A stretch of 64,000 nucleotides of DNA, taken from contig OZ219802.1 of assembly GCA_964291655.2 (NCBI GenBank), positions 2,368,001 to 2,432,000 of the forward strand. The letters are read 5' to 3'. This stretch comes from Chloroflexota bacterium (GTDB taxonomy: Bacteria > Chloroflexota > UBA11872 > VXOZ01). Both the position numbers and the translations under genes were made by a program. The notes below the pieces were generated by a model. That model saw nothing but the letters and a program-made list of their open reading frames with translations. It was not told the origin of the DNA and searched no databases. Position 1 is the stretch's first letter. Every line of letters starts with the position of its first letter. Positions 10,369-43,328 of this stretch are shown here, in pieces.

Positions 10369-10382
10369 CCCGGCCCTCTCCC

Positions 10383-10670
10383 TGTATAGACCGGGTACAT
10401 GGGTTACACATGTTCGGGCACATAGGTTACACCATAGAACGAGGGGATTTTCGTAGTATGCGATGTCCTTGCCTTGAAAGTTAGATCCGCTCAATATCCT
10501 TATGCACACAGTTTGTTTCTCTGGCACAAGCTGACAGGCTGAAAGTGAGTGCACTGTGTCGCCAGTCTCTTATCAAACCCGGACCAACCCAATGCTCTCG
10601 TAGGTGTCAATCAGTAAAATGTGTAACCCATGTCCCCGAACAACTGTTACCTATGTCCCCGGTCTGTACA
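10383..10670. mobile_element. 288-bp IS481-derived MITE, copy 1
   Basis: TGT..ACA ends; one end identical over about 50 bp to the 39890 end of the IS481; CTCCC duplicated at 10378-10382 and 10671-10675. Confidence 0.92.
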
Positions 10671-10987
10671 CTCCCCAAGGAGAGGGAGGTCTTCTCGCCT
10701 GCCGGCCCGGGTTGTGCAGAGTCCTCCTGTGGCTTGTAACCACATCCGCCCCATAGCGCAGTACCTTGGTACCCGATAAAACGTCCTCACTTACTCATAG
10801 TACAGAATTCACTGTCGTCAGTGTCGGATGTGGGACACTGGAGCATGGCGTAAAGCAACGGCGCAGAGCCAATTCATAAGCAACGATGCACGAAACGTCG
10901 ATCCCTTCGCACCACGCTCCAGGCAATTGGGTAAGTGACTACTCCCTACACAGGGCGCCAGAATCCTCGCCGGCAATCAGGGTCCGG

Positions 10988-34128: not shown

Positions 34129-34625
34129 GAAGAGCTCTGCGTAACTTTAACGAGCACGCGAAATTGGGCTGGAACGGTGGCGATTCACCCTCACCCCGGC
34201 CCTCTCCCTGTACAGACCGGGGACATAGGTAACAGTTGTTCGGGGACATGGGTAACACATTTTACTGATTGACACCTACGAGAGCATTGGGTTGGTCCGG
34301 GTTTGATAAGAGACTGGCGACACAGTGCACTCACTTTCCGCCTGTCAGCTTGTGCCAGAGAAACAAACAGTGTGCATAAGGATATTGAGTGGATCTAACT
34401 TTCAAGGCAAGGACATCGCATACTACGAAAACCCCCTCGTTCTATGGTGTTACCTATGAGCCCGAACAACTGTTACCCATGTCCCCGGTCTATACACTCC
34501 CCCAGGAGAGGGTGCAGAGTGCGAAACCGGGTGAACATAGAGCAACTCCGGTCCCCTCTCCTGGGGGAGAGGGTTAGGGTGAGGGGATGTTCTCACTTAC
34601 CGGCTTGAGTTGTGCAAAGGTCTCC
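34129..34625. mobile_element. GGAGACC-family carrier MITE with two REP hairpins and a nested 288-bp MITE
   Basis: Degenerate left end GAAGAGCTCTGCGTAAC, right end GTTGTGCAAAGGTCTCC; TGA duplicated at 34126-34128 and 34626-34628. Confidence 0.65.
34209..34496. mobile_element. 288-bp IS481-derived MITE, copy 2 (inverted relative to copy 1)
   Basis: About 11 substitutions versus 10383-10670; CTCCC duplicated at 34204-34208 and 34497-34501. Confidence 0.92.
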
Positions 34626-34740
34626 TGAGGGAGAGGGCTATAGCCTGCCCCGTACTCGATACGGGGGTGAGGGTGAGAAGTTAGAGCAAAACTGGATTGA
34701 CTAGGAACTCGCAGGGGGATTTGGAGAAAAGGGAGCCGCA

Positions 34741-38298: not shown

Positions 38299-38625
38299 GC
38301 AGCTTGGCTGCGCCGACGCTTACGTCCCTGCTTCGCAGGGAGTTACCCTCCTGCCGGACCCCGTTCATTGCAATTGCCACGGCTCCCAGATTCACATGTC
38401 TTGGCCGCGAATCTGCCACGACGCGGGAGACAAGCACCCACGCTGCGGCATTACTTGCCCCCTCTCCCTCGTGAAAGCCTCCCGTATTGGCGTGCGTAGT
38501 AGGCTTTGCGCAAATTCGGCTGCAGTCCCGCATATTGCTCCCTCTCCCACACATTGCTCCCTCTCCCCTGGGAGACCTCTGCATAACCCCACTTTCAAGC
38601 AAGGGCACTCCCTCTCCCTGGGGGA

Positions 38626-39890
38626 TGTACAGACCGGGGACATAGGTAACAGATGTTCGGGTAGATAGGTTACACATTTTGTGCTCTGAGGTCTATGGTT
38701 TTTACTCTTTGGATCGAGAAGTACACGTCCCAGACACCGTCCGTTCGGGTGGGTCGCAGGGCGACTTGCTTGTGCGTGAAGGCCCTGCCCACACGGAGCC
38801 GTCTGCCTTGGAAGGAGATGCGGCCGGAGACATCGACGCTGCGTACGCGGTCGTCGGGAGCGTAGGCGAGGGCAGGCAAGGTCTCTGGGAAAGGGCGAGG
38901 ACTAGGCGTGTATCTGGTAATGGGAGTGTCGAGATCGAGGGCATGGTGTGGGCGTTCCAAGTTGTAGAAGTGGCGCCAGGTGTCAAAGGCGCGCTGGCAA
39001 TGGTCCAGGTCGGTAAAGGTGGTCCCTGCCAGCAGTTCGCTCTTGAGGGAGCGGTGGAAGCGTTCCAGCTTGCCGAGTGTCTGGGGATGGTAGGGTCGGC
39101 TGTGCAGGACGTTGATGCCCAGCTGCATGAGCCAGACGGTGAGGGGCGTGAAGGGCTGGGCACTGTCGTTACCCCAGGGAGAGCCGTTGTCCATGAGCAT
39201 GGCCTGGGGCAAGCCGTAGCGGCGAAAGACAGCGGTGAGGCGGTCTTGGACCGTCTCTCCCCGCTCGTTGGCACAGGCCTGTAACCCGAGGTTGAAGCGG
39301 GAGTGATCGTCTAGGAGGGTGAGAGGATGACAGCGGTTCTGCTGCATGACGAAATGTCCCTTGAAGTCCATCTGCCACAGCTCGTTGGGCTGGGGTCGTT
39401 CGAAGCGCACATGGGGCGTGTGCTTGGCGCTCTGGGCTGGATCGATGAGCCCATGGCGTTTGAGAATGGCATTGATGGTGCTCTTGGCCGGCACGTCGGT
39501 ATGCCCCTGGTCCTGCAGCATTCTGCGCAGCACATGGGCGCCCTTCGTAGGATGCGCCAGACGCAGCGCGATGATGCGTTCCTCCAGCGCCGGGCGCGTG
39601 CGGTGCGGACACGTGTGCGGCCGCCGCGACCGGTCGTGCAAACCGTCTTCGCCAGCTTCCGCATACCGCTCCAGCGTCTTGTACGCCGTCTTGCGACTGA
39701 TCTCCAGACGGCGACACAGCTCGCTGATGTTGGCCCCTTCCATCAGTGCCAGTGCAATGAACTCCTTGCGTTCAGACACAACCGTACTCTCCTTCCAAGG
39801 CATGGCGCTCCTCCATCTGTAAGAATCTCCATGCCTTAAGGTGTAACCTATGTGCCCGAACATGTGTAACCCATGTACCCGGTCTATACA
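38626..39890 (-). mobile_element. IS481-family insertion sequence A
   Basis: About 50-bp imperfect TIRs TGTA(C/T)AGACCGGG..; GGGGA duplicated at 38621-38625 and 39891-39895. Confidence 0.95.
38670..39803 (-). CDS. IS481-family DDE transposase
   Basis: MPWKES start with GGAGGAG RBS; HTH; WQMDFKG, MDNGSPW, GKLERFHR. Confidence 0.95.
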   Translation of the reverse strand: MPWKESTVVSERKEFIALALMEGANISELCRRLEISRKTAYKTLERYAEAGEDGLHDRSRRPHTCPHRTRPALEERIIALRLAHPTKGAHVLRRMLQDQGHTDVPAKSTINAILKRHGLIDPAQSAKHTPHVRFERPQPNELWQMDFKGHFVMQQNRCHPLTLLDDHSRFNLGLQACANERGETVQDRLTAVFRRYGLPQAMLMDNGSPWGNDSAQPFTPLTVWLMQLGINVLHSRPYHPQTLGKLERFHRSLKSELLAGTTFTDLDHCQRAFDTWRHFYNLERPHHALDLDTPITRYTPSPRPFPETLPALAYAPDDRVRSVDVSGRISFQGRRLRVGRAFTHKQVALRPTRTDGVWDVYFSIQRVKTIDLRAQNV

Positions 39891-40022
39891 GGGGAGAGGG
39901 TTGGGGTGAGGGGGTCTTTTTGCTACGATGGCCCTTTACGCTGGGCAGTGTCAAGACGTATCAGGGCAGACTCGGTGTGCATATTGAGAGATTTCAGGAG
40001 AGCCACCCTCACCCTAGCCCTC

Positions 40023-41309
40023 TGTATAGACCTGACACATAGTTTACAGGTGTACGAGGACATACTTTACACATGAGTTGGTATTTCTACACGGGGCAGA
40101 GGTCCGCGCAGGTTCAGCTCTGCTATGTGGTGGGTCATGAACCACACACTCCACACGCCGTCACTGGTGGTTGGTCTCAGGCCGATGTGGCAACCCACAA
40201 ACGCCTTGCCGACGCGGAACTCTCGTCCCTGAAAGTTGACCCAACCTTCCGCCATCACCTTGCGCGTCTCGTCGCCGTCGCCATACGTGATCGGGGGGAG
40301 TTCCTCGGGGAAGGAGCGGCGGCTCGGCGCGTAGCGGCTCAGGGGCGTTGCCATGTGGAGGGCCTGGTGCGGTCGTTCCAGGTTGTAGACGTCCCGCCAG
40401 CGGTCCAGGGCCGCTTGGCAGGTCGCGAGGTCGGCGAACCGCCTGCCTTGCAGCGCCTCAGCCTGCAAGGTGCGGTGGAACCGCTCCTCTTTGCCCTGGG
40501 TCTGCGGATGGTAGGGGCGACCATGGCTCACCGACACGCCCAGCCGCAGCAGCCAGACGGTAAGCCTGGTGTACGGGTGCGCGGCATTGCTGCCCCACGG
40601 CGACCCGTTGTCCATCAGCATACGCGCCGGCAGTCCGTAGCGGCGAAAGGCACTCGTCAGACATGCCCGCACCGTGTCTGCCCGCTCGTCCCCACAGGCC
40701 CACAGACCCACGGCGAAGCGGGAGTGGTCGTCCAAGACGGTGAGCGGGTGGCAGCGCCCGGCGTCCACGGCGAAGTGACCCTTGTAGTCCATCTGCCACA
40801 GGTCGTTGGGATACGGGTGTTCAAAGCGCTGCCAGTCCCGGTGCGTTCGCTCCACCGGGTCGATGAGATCGTGCCGATGGAGGATGTTGGTGATGGCGCT
40901 GGGGCTGGGAACCACCGTGTGACCGGCGTTCAGCAGTGCGTGGTGGAGCTTGCGACCGCCCCACGCCGGGTGGCGCTTGCGCAGTTCTACCACGACCGCC
41001 TCCACCGCAGATGGCGTGCGCCGCGGCGAGTGGTGCGGCCGACGCGAGCGGGACGTGAAGGCCTCTTCCCCCTCTTCGGCGTAACGATGCAGCAAGGCAT
41101 AGCCAGTGGGCGGCGAGATCGCAAAGCGTCGACACAACGCGCGTATGTTCGCCCCCGGCGCTCGCGCCAAAGCGACGAATTCGCGCTTAGCATCCACAGC
41201 AGTACTCTCCTTCCAAGGCATGAGGCACCTCCTTCTTTACTCAGAAAGAGTGCCATACTGTGTAAAGTATGTCTGCGCACACCCGTTAAGTATCTCTCTG
41301 GTCTATACA
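40023..41309 (-). mobile_element. IS481-family insertion sequence B
   Basis: About 51-bp imperfect TIRs TGTATAGACC..ACATACTTTACACA; CCCTC duplicated at 40018-40022 and 41310-41314. Confidence 0.95.
40067..41221 (-). CDS. IS481-family DDE transposase (divergent paralogue of A)
   Basis: WQMDYKG, MDNGSPW, GKEERFHR. Confidence 0.95.
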   Translation of the reverse strand: MPWKESTAVDAKREFVALARAPGANIRALCRRFAISPPTGYALLHRYAEEGEEAFTSRSRRPHHSPRRTPSAVEAVVVELRKRHPAWGGRKLHHALLNAGHTVVPSPSAITNILHRHDLIDPVERTHRDWQRFEHPYPNDLWQMDYKGHFAVDAGRCHPLTVLDDHSRFAVGLWACGDERADTVRACLTSAFRRYGLPARMLMDNGSPWGSNAAHPYTRLTVWLLRLGVSVSHGRPYHPQTQGKEERFHRTLQAEALQGRRFADLATCQAALDRWRDVYNLERPHQALHMATPLSRYAPSRRSFPEELPPITYGDGDETRKVMAEGWVNFQGREFRVGKAFVGCHIGLRPTTSDGVWSVWFMTHHIAELNLRGPLPRVEIPTHV

Positions 41310-41570
41310 CCCTCTCCCGTCGAGGGAGAGGGAACTATTTCGCCACCGCTTGAGTTGCGCTAAGGTCTCCCTGGGGAGAGGGCTGGGGTGAGGGGAGATT
41401 CTTGTCTTGCCACGTTAGCGAGAACGTGTTGACATACAATATTAATCACTTGAGTGGTGCTCATTTGCCCCAAGTGTGCGCAGGTTGCAAACCTGCGCTA
41501 CCGGAAATCGCAGTAGAATAGAATGGTGTGCGAAGACTCTTAGTTTTCTTGCCATTGAAGGACTCACCGC

Positions 41571-43328
41571 TTGAACATCGACGTTGCCACACTCACCGCT
41601 CTGCGGCGGGAATTCACCGAGAAGATCGTTGGCGGGCGAATTCAGCGCGTGCTGCATCCGGATAATCTTGCCGTAGCCCTTGAGATATGCGCGTACGGTG
41701 AGACGTGGTGGCTCATCATCAATGCCGCGCCGCAGGCGCCGAGACTCTATCTCACCCACGAGCGGCCGGCGCGCATGGATGACAACGTCACCCCGCTGCT
41801 GCTCCTACTGCGCAAGTACGTGCGTAACGGACGCCTCATCGCCGTGGAACAGCCGCCGTGGGAGCGGGTCTTGCAGTTTACGGTGCACGCGCGGGTGGAT
41901 GAGGACATTGTAGAGACCACATTGATTGCCGAGATCATGGGGCGTACGAGCAACCTGGTGCTGGTGGATGCCGACGGTGTCGTTCTCGATAGCATGAAGC
42001 GCGTGGACGCCTCCATCAATCGCTACCGGCAGGTAAAGCCGAAGCTGCCCTACGTCCCGCCGCCGCCGCTCAGCCGTCCCGATCCGTTTTCCGCAGAAGC
42101 TTCGTTGCTGGAAGCCGCCGCTCAGGCCGAGCCGAAACAGCCTGCCTGGCGTGTGCTGATGGGGCAGACAAGCGGCTGCGGACCGCTCATTGCCCGCGAA
42201 GCGGTATTTCGCGCTGCAGGCGAGGCCGTGGCGCCGGCGGCAGACGTTGTGTGGCAGGATGTCTTGGATGCGGCACAGGGCATCTTCACACAGGTAGACA
42301 GCGGCGAATTTACGCCAAGTCTGGCGCGCAAAGAAGACGGCGCGCTCGCCGCCTATGCTCCCTACGCTCTTACTATGTTCCCGCAATGCGAGACGCTCGA
42401 CTTGATGAGTGGAGCAATTGAGCAGTTCTACCGGGAGCAGGGCAAAGCGCCGCAACGACAGACGCGCGACCTGGGTCAGAAGCCCCTGCAAACTGCCCTT
42501 AAGGAGCGCATGGACCAGCTCCAGCAGAGGCGCCGCGCCCTGGAACGTCAAGAAGCCGAGGCCACTGATGCCGAGGAGTGGCGGCGCAAAGGTGATTTAG
42601 TCTTGGCGTACGGCTACAGCGTCGCGCCGGGCAGCAGCGAGATCGAGGTGGACGACGAAACTATTCGCATCGACCCACAGGAATCAGTAGCCGCGAATGC
42701 CGACACGTACTTCGCTGCCTACAAGCGCAAGAAACGGGCGCAGGAAGAGGTGCCGGGGCTGCTGCGTCGGGTCAAGAATGAATACGCCTACTGCGAGCAG
42801 ATGGAAGCTCTGCTGGAAGCCGCGGAGACGCCAACCGACGTGCGCGCGGTGCGCGATGAGTTGCGCGAGCAGGGCATCATGGGCGGCGGCCAAGAACGAA
42901 AGACCAAGAAACTACAAAGCAAAAAGCGCGGGAAAGGCAAGCGCGGCAGGCAGGTGGACGCGGGTGCGCAGCCGGTCTCGTTCTGGCTCGACGGCGTGCA
43001 GGTGCTCGTGGGTCGCAGCGGCGCGCAGAACGATGCCGCCCTGCGTCTGGCCGACGCCAACGACCTGTGGCTGCACGCGCGCAACGTGCCGGGCGCACAT
43101 ACACTGCTGCGCTCCGGCGGCCGCGACGTGCCGGAAAACATCATCAACCAGGCCGCCCAAATCGCCGCCTACTACAGCAAGCTGCGCGAGTCCACGAGCG
43201 CTGAAGTGGACGTTACCCGCCGCCGCTATGTGCGCCGCATCCCTCGTTCTCCCCCCGGCCTCGTCACGTATCGCAACGAGTACACCATTCGCGTGAAGCC
43301 CGAGCCGATACCCCAGCCGGAACGGTAG
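41571..43328 (+). CDS. rqcH: Ribosome quality control NFACT protein (RqcH/FbpA)
   Basis: EIMGRTSN, VGRS..QND, WLHARNVPGAH, AAYYSK. Confidence 0.92.
   Translation: MNIDVATLTALRREFTEKIVGGRIQRVLHPDNLAVALEICAYGETWWLIINAAPQAPRLYLTHERPARMDDNVTPLLLLLRKYVRNGRLIAVEQPPWERVLQFTVHARVDEDIVETTLIAEIMGRTSNLVLVDADGVVLDSMKRVDASINRYRQVKPKLPYVPPPPLSRPDPFSAEASLLEAAAQAEPKQPAWRVLMGQTSGCGPLIAREAVFRAAGEAVAPAADVVWQDVLDAAQGIFTQVDSGEFTPSLARKEDGALAAYAPYALTMFPQCETLDLMSGAIEQFYREQGKAPQRQTRDLGQKPLQTALKERMDQLQQRRRALERQEAEATDAEEWRRKGDLVLAYGYSVAPGSSEIEVDDETIRIDPQESVAANADTYFAAYKRKKRAQEEVPGLLRRVKNEYAYCEQMEALLEAAETPTDVRAVRDELREQGIMGGGQERKTKKLQSKKRGKGKRGRQVDAGAQPVSFWLDGVQVLVGRSGAQNDAALRLADANDLWLHARNVPGAHTLLRSGGRDVPENIINQAAQIAAYYSKLRESTSAEVDVTRRRYVRRIPRSPPGLVTYRNEYTIRVKPEPIPQPER

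Follow-up and report, generated by a model that had tools for sequence, protein, structure and literature searches.

Insertion sequences (IS) of an IS481 subgroup, together with MITEs (miniature inverted-repeat transposable elements) that have the same ends, very probably choose as their target a repeat resembling the repetitive extragenic palindromes (REPs). The window, that is, the whole stretch of 64,000 nucleotides analysed here (G000:C2:2368001-2432000), belongs to the Chloroflexota genome G000 (3.47 Mb in two contigs) and contains four such elements. ISA (1265 bp) occupies positions 38626-39890 on the minus strand, has the ends TGTACAGACC...GGTCTATACA and lies between two copies of the 5-bp target duplication GGGGA (38621-38625 and 39891-39895). 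ISB (1287 bp), also on the minus strand, occupies 40023-41309 and duplicates CCCTC (40018-40022, and again from 41310). Two 288-bp copies of MITE-A with ISA-type ends of about 55 bp are located at 10383-10670 and 34209-34496 and duplicate CTCCC, at 10378-10382 and 10671-10675 for the former and at 34204-34208 and 34497-34501 for the latter. All four elements start with TGTAYAGACC and end with GGTCTRTACA. The elements and their duplications, which had been described in a first-pass annotation of this DNA, were confirmed in the sequence.

That annotation had also claimed that excision restores a REP-like hairpin every time, and this held for the four window sites. Removal of each element and one duplication gave CCCTCACCC, 3 nt and CCCTCTCC(C), followed across a short loop by (G)GGAGAGGG. 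ISA splits the repeat into a left half at 38610-38625, consisting of the distal arm CCCTCTCC and the loop, and a right half at 39891-39912 with the arm GGAGAGGG, the spacer TTG and the box GGGTGAGGG. At ISB, the box CCCTCACCC (40006-40014) and the spacer TAG precede the left duplication, and the right duplication is followed by the remaining hairpin CCCTCTCCC-GTCGA-GGGAGAGGG (41310-41332 with the duplication), the segment 41310-41336 having a predicted folding energy of -10.3 kcal/mol.

To count the copies in G000, we searched the genome by BLAST with the four window elements and retained those of full length. The 73 copies comprised 17 of ISA (at least 97% identity), 5 of its 87% relative ISC, 2 ISA/ISC hybrids (93% identity), 4 of ISB that were identical to one another, 33 of MITE-A and 12 of MITE-C, which is 287 bp long and has ISC-type ends. 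No segmental duplicates were detected among them by shared far flanks, the sole flagged element being situated between two MITEs. Elements and duplications were excised, and a site was counted as a full repeat if the box, the arm and the partner arm were present with at most one mismatch each. Allowing duplications of 5 and 6 bp, the rebuilt empty site was a full CCCTCACCC-N3-CCCTCTCC-loop-GGAGAGGG repeat for 65 of the 73 copies (62/73 if the duplication is fixed at 5 bp). With the elements removed, G000 contained 209 full repeats, 65 of them occupied and 144 empty, such that about one third of the repeats are now occupied. The full repeats span 6,839 of 3,425,135 bp, and the location of 65/73 sites in 0.20% of the genome corresponds to a binomial log10 P of -165. 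This comparison of all rebuilt sites with the genomic frequency of the hairpin had been proposed in the first-pass annotation. A test blind to sequence gave the same picture, as a perfect stem of at least 6 bp with a loop of 2-9 nt was present at 69/73 sites versus 1,159 of 20,000 random positions. We consider it near certain that these figures reflect a true target specificity.

Seven of the eight sites that did not yield a full repeat keep halves or remnants of it. At C2:1511277, C2:1520257 and C2:1793963 the flanks derive from two different repeats, as expected from recombination between copies. The duplication is imperfect at C2:1154490, the box has two mismatches at C2:2554072, and a degenerate MITE lies within a degenerate repeat at C2:1820002. 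The repeat at C2:1707063 (to 1708368) is doubly occupied, with ISB inserted at the arm's base and an IS1182-family element in the loop. At C2:1507574 the insertion is in a different hairpin and duplicates ATACG. A separate observation concerns G000:C2:1511277-1520544, where two inverted MITE-A copies lack duplications. Exchanging their right flanks gives back the 6-bp duplication CTCCCC, which points to an inverted segment of about 9 kb separating the two copies.

The insertion register, counted from the first base of the arm adjoining the box, is fixed by the type of element. Among the 62 full-repeat sites of ISA, ISC, the hybrids and the MITEs, the duplication begins at position 4, 5 or 6 in 55, and thus consists of the last four stem bases of the box-side arm plus one or two loop bases; five begin on the far arm, at the corresponding mirror position (11), and two elsewhere. 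ISB was found at position 0 in 3/3 full sites and at C2:1707063, where it duplicates the first five bases of the arm, and in G008, CCCTC likewise stands on both sides of a relative located where a contig ends. The earlier description of an insertion point that shifts by a few bases within the stem was therefore right in that registers differ, and wrong in implying a loose choice, since the register follows the element (0 for ISB, 4-6 in 55/62 of the others). Of the 65 sites, 43 have a 5-bp duplication and 16 a 6-bp one, and at the other 6 the duplication is imperfect. The commonest duplications are CTCCC (22), TCCCC (13) and CTCCCC (12). ISA is inserted in both orientations relative to the repeat (8 same, 9 opposite), and the MITEs, which share only the element ends, insert in the same way.

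The repeat itself is about 33 bp long and is composed of a C-rich box, a 3-nt spacer and a palindrome of 8-9 bp; intact copies have predicted folding energies of -8.7 and -10.3 kcal/mol. A crude coding map takes in 79% of the genome, and 26 of the 187 full sites with exact arms fall within it. Being a short, GC-rich, imperfect palindrome with 209 full copies mostly outside the coding map, the repeat is REP-like. A gene for a REP-associated tyrosine transposase (RAYT) flanked by the same REPs was not found in G000: a lone open reading frame (ORF) of 276 aa on the minus strand (G000:C2:2523382-2524209; L054:1402-2229) scored 81.7 bits with the RAYT model NF047646, for which the cut-off is 80, and the 3.2-kb locus around it contained no repeat arm. 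The repeat exists independently of the elements. It is entered in both orientations and at points that depend on the type of element, 144 copies are empty, and it occurs in genomes that gave no match to this transposase. The exact motif was present in all 16 other genomes of the genus, in 1 to 266 copies each, including four without a transposase match at E 1e-30 (G006, 21 copies; G009, 1; G010, 22; G014, 75), and in genomes of other genera without a transposase match (G029, 131 copies; G036, 82). A reversed control motif gave no hits in 41/41 genomes.

Some further observations on the repeat may be recorded here. A composite repeat that resembles a bacterial interspersed mosaic element (BIME) is located at 41352-41398 in the window and at about 35 other places in G000; it consists of box, arm and a GGAGACCTTTGC... 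variant, followed about 35 nt on by an inverted full repeat, and its variant half is never occupied. Two similarities noted by eye were discarded. A resemblance of the element ends to the repeat (shared CCGGGG) fits one spacer type only and does not fit ISB, and a twofold-symmetric half-site around the duplication (CCCT...AGGG) fits some loop types only. Cumulative GC skew revealed no clear origin or terminus in G000.

To quantify what the target needs, we compared occupancy among arms with the identical 10-mer CCCTCTCCCC, assigning each insertion to one arm. Where both the box and the partner arm were present, 48 of 124 arms were occupied (39%). Relative to this class, occupancy was lower for the far arm of a full repeat (0/11; Fisher P = 8e-3), for hairpins without the box (1/30; P = 6e-5), for box and arm without the partner (2/43; P = 6e-6) and for solo arms (1/28; P = 1e-4). 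A natural variant in which GGAGACC replaces GGAGAGGG, with box, arm and loop kept, was occupied in 0/36 cases, and in 0/19 of those with the CCCTCTCCCC 10-mer (P = 4e-4); its window example has a predicted folding energy of -3.7 kcal/mol. The subtype with CG after the arm was used in 4/46 cases versus 53/124 for the CCCTCTCCCC type. The first-pass annotation had named two patterns as contrary to its reading, namely insertions mostly outside the hairpin and equal use of any G/C run. Neither was found, as 65/73 sites are inside the hairpin and the identical 10-mer elsewhere is used at 0-5% compared to 39%.

The same target is used by relatives of these elements. Transposases with 73-84% identity were present in 12 of the 16 other genomes of the genus, and more distant ones (47-55%) in two other families of the class. 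We extracted 50 copies from 14 of these genomes, 47 of which had usable flanks. The rebuilt site was a full repeat for 35 of these 47 usable sites, from 11 other genomes, another hairpin for five, and half a repeat without a clean duplication for three, and four had none of these. A 52% relative in another family (G034) was inserted in a hairpin with a 12-bp stem, CCCTCCCCCGTC-GG-GACGGGGGAGGG. Among the few sites outside the repeat is L016 (G015:C1:1201678-1204836), where an ISC-like element is located within the leader of an ISB-like element.

More distant relatives were sampled in a scan of species representatives, in which 80 loci were analysed out of at least 583 relatives confirmed among the first 590 matches to the pattern. 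The loci come from Chloroflexota, Planctomycetota, Alpha- and Gammaproteobacteria, Nitrospirota, Acidobacteriota, Bacteroidota and others. Element ends were anchored on the outer TGTAYAGACC, which was set apart from an inner repeat TGTTCGGG..., and the count covered 58 sites in 29 genomes once 7 loci from the genus of the window, 10 lacking recognisable ends and 5 whose flanks were short had been set aside. At 36/58 sites the insertion was spanned by a perfect inverted repeat of at least 8 nt, as compared with 36/2,519 for pseudo-sites within these flanks; lowering the threshold to 7 nt gave 39/58 and 99/2,519. At least one site in such a palindrome was found in 23 of the 29 genomes. The same CCCTCACCC-N3-CCCTCTCCC-loop-GGGAGAGGG repeat was the target in Nitrospirales (L111), Acidobacteriota (L113), Alphaproteobacteria (L100) and Isosphaeraceae (L115), and it also flanks a related element at L123; unrelated palindromes were the targets at L127, L119, L117 and L071. 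The proposal made from the window alone, that an IS481 subgroup directs its insertions to REPs, is supported by G000, by a further 12 genomes of its genus and by more distant relatives.

A second hairpin, CCCCGTA-CTCGA-TACGGGG, abuts the GGGTGAGGG box and received a MITE in G000 (C2:1507574) and full-length elements in G015 (L002) and G005 (L037). All three insertions duplicate ATACG, which corresponds to one loop base and four box-side stem bases, whereas the sequences flanking them further out are not the same. Seen from the loop, the insertions have the geometry found in the main repeat, with a distance to the box of 1 nt instead of 7 nt. In G007 (L007) this hairpin is present on one flank only. 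The module CCCCGTA-N5-TACGGGG with the flank AGCCTG is found at 34648-34666 in the window and at dozens of places in G000, often between a REP hairpin and a GGGTGAGGG box, as if inserted in the spacer.

An unrelated element uses the main palindrome as well. This is an IS1182-family element of about 1.65 kb with a 546-aa transposase (NF033551, 364 bits), present at G000:C2:1013800-1015620 (L053) and at 22 other places, none of them in the window. All 23 full-length copies are in the loop of the same REP-like palindrome, with the loop duplicated, and some of the sites show no box in the flanks examined. As both contigs have copies at their ends, it is probably at this element that the assembly is broken.

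ISA and ISB belong to the IS481 family by model score, single ORF, domains, ends and duplications. Members of this family have inverted repeats that start with TGT and duplicate 4-15 bp of target (the ISfinder range). The transposase genes are located on the minus strand at 38670-39803 for ISA (377 aa from MPWKES, as in database homologues, or 397 aa with an upstream ATG) and at 40067-41221 for ISB (384 aa), and the two proteins are 55% identical. They scored 290.6 and 293.3 bits with the NCBIfam IS481 model NF033577 (curated cut-off 224), and 117.8 and 117.2 with the IS3 model, below its cut-off of 160. Each IS has one long ORF without a programmed frameshift, and the Pfam domains are HTH_28/HTH_32, LZ_Tnp_IS481, rve and rve_3. 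The inverted ends match at 24-26 of 30 positions, and the duplications are 5 or 6 bp. Residues D146, D205 and E247, which we take to be the aspartate-aspartate-glutamate (DDE) triad, were invariant across 25 transposase sequences. The frames of the 24 ISA/ISC-type copies are open, with no stops, and ISA, ISC and ISB appear from their sequences to be active or recently active.

The NF033577 match stops near residue 318 of the 397-aa frame, leaving about 80 C-terminal residues beyond the model. A homologue search scored at least 8,000 candidates, all at E 1e-10 or better, and among the best 120 hits listed, those at 58-66% identity were mostly 374-382 aa long with a query coverage of 98-100%. 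Since these hits span the whole query, the C-terminal part is general in the subgroup, and thousands of homologues, each about 375 aa in length, have its beta domain. An AlphaFold model based on 25 sequences had a mean predicted local distance difference test (pLDDT) score of 79, with residues 300-377 above 90 and forming six strands. Whole-chain alignment with Foldseek retrieved the IS21 transposase IstA (8b4h, E 2e-16), followed by TnsB, MuA and retroviral integrases. The predicted architecture comprises helix-turn-helix (HTH) domains, an RNase H-like core and a C-terminal barrel, and the position of the beta domain matches that of the C-terminal barrel in IstA, TnsB, MuA and retroviral integrases. 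The core of ISA is 62% identical to that of ISB, and the corresponding values for the N-terminal and C-terminal regions are 52% and 45%. By its modelled position the C-terminal beta domain may contact target DNA, and it is not singled out as the determinant of specificity.

We suggest that the transposase complex picks a single kind of target, the repeat of about 33 bp made up of box, spacer and palindrome, and docks on it as duplex DNA, with the box and both arms required. Elements of the IS3/IS481 type move by copy-out, paste-in via a circular intermediate. The sequences show that strand transfer is staggered by 5 or 6 bp, that its register is fixed and that either orientation is accepted; it splits a palindrome that is exactly rebuilt upon excision. 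The intact rebuilt sites and the plain duplication in one arm imply that ordinary duplex DNA was attacked, as opposed to the stem of an extruded hairpin; in the latter case one strand would be expected to be struck twice and the loop to be lost. Parts of the complex that do not grip the element ends, either spare HTH domains or the C-terminal beta-barrel, may read the arms and the box; alternatively, what is read may be a shape or a host protein presented by the repeat DNA. Because the repeat is intergenic, the elements could multiply without breaking genes. That it is the base sequence which is read has, in our estimate, little short of an even chance.

Recognition of the palindrome as a structure, be it an extruded cruciform, a single-strand hairpin at the replication fork or a bendable centre, is quite possible, although we would not expect it. 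Relatives with 52-64% identity were inserted in unrelated palindromes, such as CGTGGCTGC-N7-GCAGCCACG, CCCGCC-N4-GGCGGG and a 15-bp stem TCCCCCTCTCCCTTA; the second hairpin, with a different stem, was entered at the same loop/stem junction in three genomes despite its different distance to the box; intact repeats are predicted to fold more stably than the variant that is never used; and the unrelated IS1182-family element chose the same palindrome. Against this stand the evidence for attack on a normal duplex, the near absence of insertions in box-less hairpins with the same arm, and the finding that most target palindromes, also those in other phyla, again have C-tract and G-tract arms. In its broadest form, this reading would have an IS481 subgroup of many phyla (transposases of about 375 aa, TGTAYAGACC ends) recognise palindromes as such, largely independent of sequence, with the register depending on a domain that ISA and ISB could exchange. 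We regard this as possible but rather unlikely; if true, it would be a natural DDE transposase that is led by structure or symmetry to harmless intergenic repeats.

A tether, by which a host protein bound to the repeat or box recruits the transposase and the off-centre register marks its seat, seems improbable to us. The REPs of E. coli bind integration host factor (IHF), gyrase and Pol I, and a tether would be in line with the presence of two unrelated IS families on one repeat, with the displacement of the IS481 group toward the box and with the need for both box and palindrome. No candidate protein was identified, however, the different palindromes used across phyla would each require another host partner, and ISA and ISB have different registers on the same repeat.

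A plain local preference for CTCCC(C) within C-runs, in which the hairpin would play no part, would account for the commonest duplications and for the lower use of the subtype with CG after the arm, but it is very improbable given how rarely the identical 10-mer is used outside the full repeat, and because CGTAT/ATACG and loop sequences are duplicated too and ISB duplicates CCCTC. To survivorship alone, by which random insertions would persist solely in harmless intergenic repeats, we give almost no credence: the repeat is indeed mostly intergenic and all high-copy IS families here are found in it, yet of the part of the genome outside the coding map, roughly 21%, it makes up only about 1% while containing 89-99% of the copies, at single-base registers, and copies that are 97-100% identical must be recent.

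Several observations weigh against target choice by the transposase as the full explanation. Among the class sites, the four without repeat or hairpin include one inside another IS481-family element, and one Dehalococcoidia genome was far less specific, with a palindrome of at least 7 nt at only 4/13 sites. The second hairpin is rarely used, since a single insertion was found in G000 despite dozens of copies. The occupancy contrasts are confounded, as sites without box or partner are in other contexts, some of them probably coding, and the GGAGACC variant is part of the larger composite repeat. G000 offers no multi-copy IS outside the repeat with which to control for this; its one other family, IS1182, is in the repeat as well. 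The site data do not separate readout of duplex sequence from readout of shape. Finally, the sites are end states in which no transposition is seen directly, and selection after insertion must therefore add to the pattern.

Public contigs from two runs of two studies (X1 record 1 and X3 record 24) join window positions 38300-38461 to 41393-41600, with about 36 nt on record between the two pieces and 5-7 differences per piece, which indicates a related population without the 2.9-kb block that holds both ISA and ISB. An apparent empty ISA site in contigs of three runs (38617 joined to 39891) was left uncounted, as its sides are 22-31 nt and the repeat is multi-copy. The matching sequencing runs were mostly sponge metagenomes, covering about one third of the sampled words, and no conclusion about habitat was drawn from them.

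Targeting of REPs explains how about 100 element copies are accommodated in a 3.5-Mb genome with little damage to genes, and the elements mark points of rearrangement and breaks in this assembly. The natural data are unusually rich: the 73 sites are independent, one target is entered at two registers, MITE derivatives behave alike, some natural variants of the target are used and others avoided, and relatives in many phyla insert in other palindromes. Together they make the choice of a site over about 33 bp by a DDE transposase testable.

The first-pass annotation knew of no REP targeting by IS481 elements, and in the open-access literature that we searched no report of REP, hairpin or palindrome targeting by this family was found; one candidate (PMC10433421) was set aside, as the relevant terms occur in its reference list only. 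REP-directed insertion is in itself a known behaviour. In the survey by Tobes and Pareja (2006; PMC1525189), the IS that target REPs fall in the IS3, IS110, IS4, IS256 and IS5 families, and the word IS481 is absent from that paper.

Within the IS481 family, the prototype from Bordetella pertussis shares with ISA and ISB the model and domain (NF033577, LZ_Tnp_IS481), the single ORF, the TGT... inverted ends and a short duplication. It differs in its target, as it duplicates 6 bp at NCTAGN, a short motif and no repeated palindrome. The IS1182-family element of G000 has the same palindrome as its target (23/23) and differs in having an unrelated transposase and in duplicating the central loop. 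The IS110-family occupants of REPs, ISPpu9, ISPpu10, ISPa11 and IS621, have all or nearly all of their copies in REPs (7/7, 7/7 and 6/6 in table 2 of PMC1525189). They are confined to REPs like the elements described here, but their enzyme is unrelated. According to the same source most members of the IS110 family lack terminal inverted repeats, whereas the present elements have inverted ends that match at most positions and short duplications, and IS110 recombination is reported to be directed by bridge RNAs (PMC11208160).

A close parallel is provided by IS1397 and ISKpn1 of the IS3 family, which target the palindromic units of enterobacterial BIMEs. These insert in the REP loop. Like the elements described here, they use DDE/rve transposases, which belong to the superfamily closest to IS481, and almost every copy is in a REP; experiments cited in PMC1525189 suggest that the transposase itself sets the specificity. 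For the present elements, a specificity residing in the transposase would be favoured indirectly by the MITEs, which have the same ends and insert in the same target. IS1397 and ISKpn1 have two ORFs and a frameshift, whereas ISA and ISB have one ORF and score below the cut-off of the IS3 model. Unlike in IS1397 and ISKpn1, insertion by the IS481 group is shifted onto the box-side arm, a flanking box is needed, and MITE families share the habit. The combination of this family with this geometry was not found described; it seems to characterise an IS481 subgroup that is widespread. With IS481 added to the five IS families tied to REP targeting, the habit has thus arisen again in a simple DDE element with a single protein.

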